A DNA stretch of 62,484 bases, counting the filler, from Myxococcota bacterium (GTDB lineage Bacteria; Myxococcota_C; UBA6777): NCBI GenBank assembly GCA_023150835.1. It is 3 parts of 3 records of this genome, joined end to end, with 100 filler letters (N's around TTAATTAATTAA, not from the genome) between each part and the next. Parts side by side here need not be neighbours in the genome. Positions count along the whole stretch, not along the records: positions 30,049 to 59,974 come from JAKLKB010000081.1; 2 more parts are not named here. The stretch is one strand, 5' to 3'. The position numbers were made by a program, and so were the translations under genes. The notes beneath the pieces were generated by a model, which was given only the letters and a program-made list of their open reading frames with translations, made no database searches and had not been told where the DNA came from. Shown here in pieces: positions 48,641-50,554 of the stretch. How positions within the stretch are numbered: the stretch's first letter is position 1; each line of letters starts with the position of its first letter.

Positions 48641-50554
48641 ATGACAGAACTTCGCGAAGAAGACCGGCGTTTGGGGATGTTGAACAGCTTGTTGACGACG
48701 CCTCACCGCGAATTGATGCCGTTATGGGATCTGCATCAAAAGCTGTGTGAAGGTGATCCGCTGTTTTATGCGCACCTTGCGGCATGGTATCAAGAGCATG
48801 GCGAAGTCCGCGATCACAAGGAGCTTTTTGTTGCGACGTTGTGCCTGAGTGAGTTTGCAGGTCATCGCGATGCTGGTTTGGGCATGCTGTGGGCGTTGCC
48901 TCCTTACCAAGTGGCCCGATTGATCGATATGATCAAGGGTCAAGTGATCCGCCATCCTGAAGTCTTTGAAGAAGAATGGGCCAAAGACTTTTCTCCTGAA
49001 GAGTTAAAAGCCTTGTCCGAACAGCGCGTCGGACTGGGGCGAAATATTCCACGTTCGATGCGAACAGAGATCGCGCGGTATTTGCGGGCTTTGGAGTCGC
49101 AACGGGCCTCTTTTGAACGGACGATCGTGGGGCAGCGGCACGCACTCAAGCGCTTGTATGCGGGCTTGCGGATCAAGCCGTCATCGCTTGCACAGCAGCT
49201 TTTGTTTGACAACGAGCCACCGATGGAGAGCTTGCCGGGCCAGATCCGCCAGCTCGCCAAGTCGGGTTCGGCGTCCAAAAAAGCAGAGATCATCGAAAAG
49301 TACCGTATCCCCTACCGCATCGCCGTTTCGCTGTTGAGTCGTCGGGAGTTTCCGCGTGTGGTTCCAGCCTTGTTGCGGGTGATGAGCGCGCAAGAAGTGA
49401 TCAACAGCCTAGGCTCGTTGCGTCGTCGTAAACTGCTCGATGATCCGAGCATTGCGGCGTTGGTACAGAAGAAGCTTGGCAAAGCCCAAACCAGCAAACG
49501 TGTCTCGACGATGAAGGCGCAAAAAGCCCTCGAAAAACTCGACTCGATGGAGCTTGAGCGAGAACGTGGCATCACGTTGACGGATATCAAAGAACGCCTC
49601 CAAGAAGTGACCGAAGAGCGTTTGTTGAGCAAAGGTACGATCGATCGATCGACAGCGTTGTTGATCGATAAATCGGCGTCGATGGAGATGGCGTTGGAGG
49701 TTGGACAGCGGATCGGCGCGATGATCGGGCTTTTGTGTTCGCGTGGTTTGTTGGCGTATGCGTTCGACACGATGCCTTATCCGATCAAATCACCTGAAAG
49801 CGATTCGCTCGCAGACTGGCAAAAAGCCTTTCACGGCATCCGAGCAGGCGGGCGAACTTCGATCGGTTCGCCGATCCAATGGATGCGGCGCAAACAACAG
49901 CGCGTCGAGCAGATCATCTTGGTGACGGACGGCGAAGAGAATGCTTCGCCCTATTTTGTCGAAGAATTGCAGGCTTATCAAAAGGAACTGGATATCTATC
50001 CGACGCTGGTGATGGTCAAAGTCGGATCGGATCGGGAATTATTGGAGAGCCGCTGTGAGCGTGCAGGGATCGCGATGGATGTCTACCGATTCAACGGGGA
50101 CTACTACTCGCTGCCCAACTTGATCCCGATGTTGACGCAGCCTTCGCGGGTGGATCTCTTGATGCAGATCCTTGATTACCCGCTACCACAGCGACCTGAT
50201 CCCAAACAAGCCTTGCCTGCACCGCCGTATGAGGAAGCCGCACAAAAAGAGCCTGTGTTGGCGTTGCGGATGCGAGCCTCGGGGCGTTTGTTGTATGCCC
50301 ACGAAGGCGGGCGACACACACCGTTTCATGTTCAATTTGAACCCCTTGTGCGGGTCGGCGATCAGCGGACGGTTGGAAAGATCACATGGCTCGATCGCGA
50401 GATGGTGATGCCGGGTGATTCCTTTCAGTGCGATATCGCCTTGCGTGTGTCTGTGGCGATCTTGCCAGAGGGGACGTTTCAACTGATGGAAGGCAACCAA
50501 GTGATCGGTGAATGTAAGCTGATCAACATCCTTGAAGAAGGAAAGATCGCTTGA
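48641..50554 (+). CDS. TROVE(Ro60)-like helical domain + vWA domain + C-terminal EF-Tu domain III
   Basis: Helical N-part ([12 protein letters not shown]...VRDHKE...[17 protein letters not shown]); v[15 protein letters not shown]...GGRTSIG...[10 protein letters not shown]-terminus EGGRHTPF...EMVMPGD...F.LMEG..VIG matches EF-Tu domain III. vWA and EF-Tu III calls are stronger than the TROVE call. Confidence 0.8.

Follow-up and report, generated by a model that had tools for sequence, protein, structure and literature searches.

Why does a protein that, judged by its motifs, is not a GTPase carry the effector-loop signature of a translation factor? The question is raised by a gene of a Myxococcota bacterium (GCA_023150835.1), which lies on a 62,484-nt stretch of DNA, called here the window; coordinates count along the window, and its positions 30,049-59,974 come from JAKLKB010000081.1. 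The gene encodes a predicted Ro60-like protein, which is built of a ring of HEAT repeats and a vWA domain and to which an EF-Tu domain III is appended. At the junction of ring and vWA domain is a look-alike of switch I of translational GTPases, in a loop that close relatives with domain III have and other relatives lack. The loop and domain III on this Ro60-like scaffold, which are restricted to one small lineage, may help to hold tRNA-like RNAs. The parts of the gene, with the evidence for each in brackets, are the following.

48614..50554, + strand: host gene, whose product is predicted to be Ro60-like (HEAT ring and vWA domain) and to end in an EF-Tu domain III (open reading frame, homologues, AlphaFold 2 model, Foldseek)
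48641..49540, + strand: TROVE-like helical (HEAT-repeat) ring, residues ~10-309 (all-helical in the AlphaFold 2 model, Foldseek)
49541..49579, + strand: switch-I look-alike, core of a clade-specific loop insertion, residues 310-322 (in frame with the host reading frame)
49646..50188, + strand: vWA domain, residues ~345-525 (Pfam, alternating strands and helices in the AlphaFold 2 model)
49667-49681, + strand: metal-ion-dependent adhesion site (MIDAS) DKSAS, residues 352-356 (regular expression)
50255..50539, + strand: beta barrel that resembles EF-Tu domain III, residues 548-642; GGRHTPF lies at residue 565 (Pfam, NCBIfam, PDB)

A switch-I look-alike in an inserted loop

The switch-I signature that the initial annotation had reported at 49541-49579 is real. 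The codons GAC TCG ATG GAG CTT GAG CGA GAA CGT GGC ATC ACG TTG are read in frame as residues 310-322 of the host and give the 12-residue core D-x-M-E-x-E-R-E-R-G-I-T. The signature had been placed inside the TROVE-like domain and ahead of the vWA domain; the second part is right, 25 residues separating it from vWA strand 1 (347-352), but it sits at the junction of ring and vWA domain, in a loop between the helices 299-310 and 321-340 of the AlphaFold 2 model, and not inside the ring. Residues 311-320 of this loop have a mean predicted local distance difference test score (pLDDT) of 53, with 313-315 below 50, so the short, charged loop is probably exposed and flexible. A relaxed switch-I expression matches once in the six-frame translation of the window, where composition predicts 0.0055 matches (3.6e-8 for the strict form), and once in 828 kb of relatives' loci, in the orthologue at locus L001. 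Chance is an unlikely origin of such a string.

LepA/EF4 switch I (G2) is the closest known element. The genome that holds L001 (G001), whose orthologue is 84% identical to the host, supplied LepA and EF-Tu for comparison, and the window motif equals its LepA at 11/14 positions and its EF-Tu, which has the switch I IDKAPEEKERGITI, at 8/14. In blastp, the motif region and LepA switch I have 14/27 identities. Profile matches of the window protein are weak and, taken alone, not significant: Pfam GTP_EFTU (PF00009) aligns residues 299-323 with positions 34-58 of 188 (E 0.15, 12.1 bits against a cut-off of 26.5), and NCBIfam lepA aligns residues 304-329 with model positions 35-60 (E 0.043). GTP_EFTU detects the piece in 6/13 clade members, with a best E of 0.0025. 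The 16-position translational-GTPase signature of PROSITE type is not matched in full, as the window fits its first 12 positions and fails at the last ones; the full pattern is found in 1/13 clade members and the first 12 positions in 5/13, while the true GTPase controls of G001 match in 3/3 cases. The motif is thus best described, at the level of sequence, as a switch-I look-alike of LepA/EF-G type that stands outside any GTPase. Homology of 12-13 residues to switch I cannot be proven. The statement that the protein carries two separate pieces of translation factor is a fair description, though solid for domain III (NCBIfam EF-Tu, E 2.7e-11) and not for the loop.

As the initial annotation had also stated, the G-domain context is missing. 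The P-loop GxxxxGK[ST], also in its loose form [AG]xxxxGK[ST], and the expressions DxxG, [NT]KxD and SA[LK] have no match in the 646 residues of the host. The G2 element with the RGIT threonine is found at residues 310-321, as a sequence match only; since G1, G3 and G4 are absent and the profile threshold is not reached, the host is classed as a non-GTPase. Unlike LepA switch I, the loop has none of the surrounding G-domain fold, and its sequence downstream of the motif is unlike the beta strand that comes next in genuine factors. The loop cannot act as a nucleotide-driven switch.

Compared with homologues, the motif region is inserted, and it co-occurs with the domain III fusion, two points which the initial annotation had proposed to check by alignment. 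Of 8000 candidates that were scored, 2097 belong to the family at E<=1e-3, and an exhaustive search gave 928 clusters at 50% identity. Among the 150 best 50% representatives, only P0010 aligns beyond residue ~540. The domain III-bearing proteins form 12 clusters at 90% identity (P0001-P0012; 55-100% identical, ~640 aa), of which P0001 (637 aa) is identical to the window protein, and the conservation figures for the clade given below refer to these clusters. Relatives of ~500 aa have an alignment gap exactly at the motif site. The distance from the RVSxxK helix to the MIDAS DKSxSM is 45-48 residues in 119/133 proteins that have both anchors, and 54-62 residues only in the 12 domain III bearers and P0013; one other protein has 51. 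The insertion is accordingly a loop of 9-16 residues, which is confined to the small clade with domain III and which ~120 shorter relatives lack.

The fusion clade is monophyletic in a maximum-likelihood tree (100/100). P0013 (543 aa), which is without domain III, nests inside it as the sister of P0009 (98/96). The motif, defined as E-R-G-I-[TS] with a D-x-M-[ED] prefix, is kept in 7/12 clusters (the window protein, P0002-P0006 and P0008), with one extra residue in P0003, and P0010 has a single change, G to S. It is therefore neither unique to this sequence nor unconserved in close fusion-bearing homologues, which together would have spoken against the initial annotation. Because intact motifs are found in three of the four subclades, the sequences show the motif to be ancestral to the fusion clade, where three or more lineages let it decay but retained domain III.

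Where it is kept, the motif is under purifying selection, as shown by sequence comparison. The window protein, P0006 and P0008 are ~60% identical overall, yet have 10/12 motif positions in common, which is not expected of a neutral loop. Selection was estimated by the Nei-Gojobori method, with the loop taken as codons 296-318 (23 codons). The ratio of non-synonymous to synonymous rates (dN/dS) between the window and L001 is 0.10 in the loop, 0.05 in the ring, 0.045 in the vWA domain and 0.27 in domain III, values that are rough because dS is near saturation. Between the window and L002, the other genome locus of the fusion clade, the proportion of non-synonymous differences (pN) is 0.157 in the loop, 0.279 in the ring, 0.183 in the vWA domain and 0.482 in domain III.

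The Ro60-like scaffold and its EF-Tu domain III

The host reading frame encodes 646 aa and opens at TTG 48614. ATG 48641 (637 aa) is the likelier start codon, since homologues begin there. The AlphaFold 2 model (pLDDT 84.7, predicted template modelling score 0.71), which was read for pLDDT and secondary structure, is helical to residue ~340, alpha/beta at 347-520 and all-beta at 548-642. In Foldseek, ranks 1-11 are Ro60/Rsr chains (E 2.4e-14 to 2.4e-10, 509-577 aligned columns), among them 9nfa_A (E 2.4e-14), 1yvp and 2nvo, with template modelling (TM) scores of ~0.6 normalised to the target. The HEAT-repeat ring closed by a vWA domain, which characterizes the Ro60 fold, is found in these superpositions. 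Pfam vWA_Ro60 matches residues 378-473 just under its cut-off (E 8.9e-6, 26.2 bits against 27.7) and VWA_2 matches with E 0.013. The partition of the model, together with the Foldseek and domain matches, leads to the assignment of the host as a predicted Ro60-like ring and vWA domain with an appended EF-Tu domain III.

The host has the overall fold and domain order of Ro60/Rsr, as far as the model goes, but differs in sequence. Pfam TROVE (PF05731) has no match in the host at E<=1 and the NCBIfam Rsr equivalog NF041674 gives 11.3 bits against a cut-off of 900, so the host is classed, by sequence family, as something other than an Rsr orthologue. The ESM Atlas returned leads below 0.9 only, to vWA and TROVE clusters, and PADLOC has no match for the protein. 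Two non-fused relatives are worth recording. A second paralogue in G001 (L089, 6069-7658, - strand, 529 aa) is 43-45% identical and has no tRNA and none of the ubiquitin-like (Ubl), E1 or JAB partners described below in its vicinity. The other lies in an unannotated 595-kb record of an uncultured jumbo phage (LR756511.1, 285741-287240, - strand; H1) and aligns with 81% of the query at 43.5% identity.

The C-terminal domain is assigned to PF03143 by several profiles. Pfam GTP_EFTU_D3 covers residues 557-639 of the window protein marginally (E 6.6e-6; score 26.8 bits, cut-off 27) and is found in 12/13 clade members, with a best E of 1.4e-13; NCBIfam EF-Tu models cover residues 554-640 with the E value given above; EF-Tu chains of the PDB match the domain in phmmer (E 6.6e-7); and EF-Tu of G001 has 35% identity over 82 residues (blastp). 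The domain resembles EF-Tu domain III in sequence, in its all-beta barrel and in the GGRHTPF motif. In contrast with EF-Tu, the host copy is without domains I and II, ends an unrelated protein and evolves fast. Deep pairs of the clade are 33% identical in domain III and 66% in the core, and domain III changes ~5-6 times faster than the rest at non-synonymous sites (dN/dS 0.27 against 0.05). Between the window protein and P0003, the core is 95% and domain III 73% identical.

Two ideas about the origin and shape of the fusion were rejected. A single donor factor for both pieces is unsupported, as the loop is LepA/EF-G-like and domain III EF-Tu-like. Mimicry of the global shape of EF-Tu, with the vWA domain in the place of the G domain, does not fit: Foldseek aligns ~400 columns with a root-mean-square deviation of >30 A and a TM score of ~0.23 normalised to the target, which means that the superposition on EF-Tu is confined to domain III.

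tRNA genes and gene neighbourhoods

The analysis of neighbourhoods covers 80 genome loci, kept from 404 relatives, and 71 metagenome loci. The genome loci include two of the fusion clade (L001 and L002), which are counted with the window as three fusion loci, and the metagenome loci include one (L090). Four features of the window are relevant here.

44531-44608, + strand: tRNA Asn-GTT (ARAGORN; context only)
44676-44749, + strand: tRNA Ile-GAT (ARAGORN; context only)
47636..48604, + strand: calcineurin-type metallophosphoesterase, upstream neighbour of the host (Pfam Metallophos, E 4.5e-4, just under the cut-off)
50551..51267, + strand: Cys-rich protein of CxxCxxCC type, downstream neighbour of the host (Pfam CxxCxxCC, E 4.6e-4, under the cut-off)

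The wider Ro60-like/vWA family is genomically tied to tRNA genes. At least one tRNA gene on the same strand is found within 6 kb upstream in 29/80 genome loci, as against 3 loci with tRNAs elsewhere, although the flanks are nearly equal in length (353 kb upstream against 355 kb downstream). In the metagenome, same-strand upstream tRNAs are present in 13/71 loci, or 12/38 of those that reach 1 kb or more upstream of the gene, as against 5 loci with tRNAs in other positions. Six loci have arrays of 21-27 tRNAs (L005, L006, L055, L059, L062 and L066), among which L005 and L006 have identical tRNA tables, and L099/L100 have arrays of 14-16. All three fusion loci have upstream tRNAs on the same strand (Rfam, ARAGORN). 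Those of the window score 52.7 and 53.2 bits with the Rfam tRNA model. L001 has two syntenic tRNAs, of which the second is called Pro-AGG (1214-1287) where the window has Ile-GAT (44676-44749), the acceptor, D and T arms being conserved and the anticodon arm different. In L002, the tRNAs Pro, Asp and Lys end 71 nt ahead of the fusion gene. L090 looks like the same DNA as L002, with three identical tRNAs at equal distance, so the evidence for tRNAs next to fusion genes comes from two loci that are independent of each other. This order is like that of rsr, which has the genes of tRNA-like Y RNAs upstream on the same strand (PMC4201824), but the genes detected nearby are here tRNAs instead of Y RNAs.

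Several details of these tRNAs stand apart. Both tRNAs of the window/L001 pair have an AT-rich acceptor stem in common. The tRNAs next to family genes often have anticodons that are unusual for bacteria (His-ATG, Asp-ATC, Phe-AAA, Asn-ATT and Ile-AAT), others look like suppressors (CTA, TCA), and a number of them score low with Rfam (32-56 bits). Such tRNAs are located at L055 5187-5925, L056 4839-4911, L059 2237-2309 and 5510-5582, and L075 4431-4503, and also at L058, L060, L064, L073, L074, L077, L080, L121 and L128. Instead of housekeeping genes, these could be diversified tRNAs or tRNA-like RNAs that act as partners. The cyanobacterial tRNA array of L055 also contains, at 1880-1935 (+), a 56-nt Rfam match to the archaeal large-subunit rRNA model that scores exactly the gathering threshold (50.1 bits) and is probably spurious or tRNA-related.

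Protein-coding neighbours of the host form a run on the same strand (46879-48604 and 50551-51914) of a Sir2-family protein, the metallophosphoesterase, the CxxCxxCC protein and a GNAT acetyltransferase. The metallophosphoesterase ends 9 nt ahead of the 48614 start and the CxxCxxCC gene overlaps the host stop by 4 nt. The run is syntenic in the close relative L001 and not in L002, and for this reason it is not treated as a conserved system. The metallophosphoesterase also has a weak match to PADLOC PDC-S10 (3.8e-7).

The shorter relatives of ~500 aa have a different context, in which the Ro60-like/vWA gene is followed by genes for a ~300-aa protein, a ThiF/E1-like protein and a JAB peptidase (for example L003 6001-9145, L004 5097-5477 and L010 5935-6354). 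The ~300-aa partner is present in 33/80 loci; its model has a coiled coil and OB-like barrels, and Foldseek relates it weakly (E ~1e-4) to the N-terminal part of the proteasomal ATPase Mpa and to S1/cold-shock-type domains. The ThiF/E1-like protein (212 aa) is found in 29/80 loci (Pfam 3.4e-28; PADLOC E1-E2 models 1.1e-20) and the JAB peptidase in 16/80. A small upstream protein in 13/80 loci ends in RPEA[VI][FY]G directly before the stop in 13/13 cases, which is a Ubl-like tail, and P0022 and P0085 have a Ubl-like part of this kind as an N-terminal extension of the Ro60-like protein itself. These operons, like the added domain III and loop of the window clade, distinguish the family from Ro60/Rsr. 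None of the Ubl/E1/JAB operon genes is found in the fusion loci. The ~300-aa partner is found in 0/2 fusion genomes (G001 and G002) against 2/2 controls; both are metagenome-assembled genomes and possibly incomplete, so that its absence is not proven.

The literature search returned no report of a Ro60/TROVE protein with an EF-Tu domain III, or of a link of this family to tRNA arrays or Ubl/E1/JAB genes, in the abstracts and passages that it covered.

Possible roles of the loop

The loop is tentatively read here as an accessory contact element for RNA or for a partner, which works beside domain III. The two pieces would be added contacts that extend the Ro60-like platform toward tRNA or tRNA-like RNA, or else toward some partner whose usual targets are translation factors. 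The inference of tRNA contact is drawn from three sets of published observations: tRNA-like Y RNAs, which are encoded upstream on the same strand, are partners of Ro60 (PMC4201824, PMC7824862); EF-Tu uses its domain III to bind tRNA at the T-arm/elbow (PMC12221289); and switch I of EF-Tu, with Arg58, the arginine of RGIT, adjoins the acceptor stem and the CCA end (PMC10495418). The tRNA genes upstream of family members give indirect support to the tRNA or ribosome contact that the initial annotation had offered as an alternative. On this reading, the loop would be accessory and dispensable.

Several observations weigh against this role. The motif is degenerate in 4/12 clusters (P0007, P0009, P0011 and P0012, of which P0011 and P0012 still have DSME). 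On average, the commonest residue at its positions has a frequency of 0.69, where the whole protein has 0.74, which puts the motif at the 31st percentile of 12-residue windows; the vWA domain has 0.82, domain III 0.55 and the linker 0.48. The ratio of domain III to core identity is 0.50 in lineages with an intact motif and 0.52 in those with a degenerate one, and this equal divergence gives no sign that both pieces work together. The loop resembles one kind of factor and domain III another. RNA binding by members of the Ro60-like family is itself only inferred. The tRNAs of the window lie 3.9 kb upstream of the host with three genes between, and tRNA proximity could come from islands that integrate at tRNA genes. 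Rfam at the gathering threshold gave neither Y RNA nor YrlA in L001, L002, the window or 11 further loci; at E<=1, tRNA is the only RNA family of this kind in window positions 44500-54500, a search in which divergent Y RNAs can be missed.

Part of this evidence also suits a relic, that is a scrap of a translational GTPase or a fortuitous linker rich in E and R, near-neutral and jobless, which would have arrived at about the time of the domain III fusion and be slowly eroding. The decays, at least three and independent, the persistence of domain III and its GGR motif in 12/12 clusters, the average or lower conservation of the motif, the indel-rich and low-pLDDT loop, and the lack of any effect of motif loss on domain III divergence all fit it. 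So does the DNA of the L001 loop, which is identical to lepA of the same genome at 35/42 nt, with 8/11 synonymous third positions equal, a short comparison of low power in which shared codon usage may be the cause. A relic is nevertheless rather unlikely, since it leaves the 10/12 positions common to three diverged lineages, the loop dN/dS of 0.10 with a loop pN below that of the ring in the comparison with L002, and the tiny chance expectation of the string to be explained. If the erosion is instead read as patchy loss, it fits a partner that is present in some hosts only, and the two pieces could be a decoy, the bait/sensor of the initial annotation, in which the displayed switch-I site and domain III draw a Lit-type protease, a kinase, a toxin or a phage binder to sense or absorb the attack. 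Lit cuts between Gly59 and Ile60 of EF-Tu, within RGIT as the initial annotation had stated, and EF-Tu domains II and III are bound by Gol, the activator of Lit (PMC3014915), so the cut site and part of the binding surface both have look-alikes in the host, by analogy only. Two factor-like pieces on one scaffold in the same clade, a domain III whose rate of evolution is 5-6 times that of the core, which might be seen at an interface of conflict, and the Ubl-like, E1-like and JAB genes of the shorter relatives, with their E1-E2 matches in PADLOC, agree with bait. The match to Lit/Gol fails at several points, however: the loop is of LepA/EF-G and not of EF-Tu type and so is mismatched to its domain III, the protein has no EF-Tu domain II, and a linked Lit-like peptidase is lacking. 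Neither is any other protease, toxin or defence gene linked in the three fusion loci, PADLOC does not recognize the host, the partner that marks the Ubl/E1/JAB operons was not found in the two possibly incomplete fusion genomes, and the dN/dS of domain III is still well below 1. Bait is for these reasons improbable, and its stronger version, a bacterial integrated decoy in which a Ro60-like sensor scaffold displays switch-I RGIT and domain III and an arms race shapes both, is a little more doubtful still.

The LepA/EF-G character of the loop, which counts against bait, is what would be expected if it imitated the switch I of that class at the factor-binding site and, with domain III, brought the ring to ribosomes or rRNA for quality control. 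Ro60 acts on rRNA in particular, and switch I of the factors makes contacts on the ribosome. Misfolded or damaged structured RNAs are targets of Ro60 (PMC4201824, PMC11277228). An ordered switch I needs bound GTP and Mg, for which the host has no site, and no linkage to ribosomal genes is seen, so docking on the ribosome is a distant prospect. The last reading dispenses with translation altogether. MIDAS sites of vWA and integrin I domains are completed by an acidic residue of the ligand, and the loop, which is acidic (D, E, E, E), flexible and located shortly ahead of vWA strand 1, with 25-40 residues between it and the MIDAS, could fold back on the metal site as a pseudo-ligand that gates partner binding at the intact DKSAS. 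This would explain neither the resemblance to switch I nor the co-occurrence with domain III, and an identical MIDAS is present in the ~120 relatives that lack the loop, which makes such a regulator very unlikely.

Ro60 proteins are conserved factors of RNA quality control, whose bacterial partners are tRNA-like, and in this lineage the predicted scaffold has gained a domain of the kind that holds the T-arm and a loop that looks like the element at the acceptor end. If both pieces contact RNA, they would be a natural reuse of tRNA-recognition modules outside translation and would give a handle on the ligand of a large uncharacterised family. If they are bait, the protein would be a bacterial counterpart of the integrated decoys of plants. 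The links of the family to tRNA arrays and to the Ubl/E1/JAB operon may outweigh the motif in importance.

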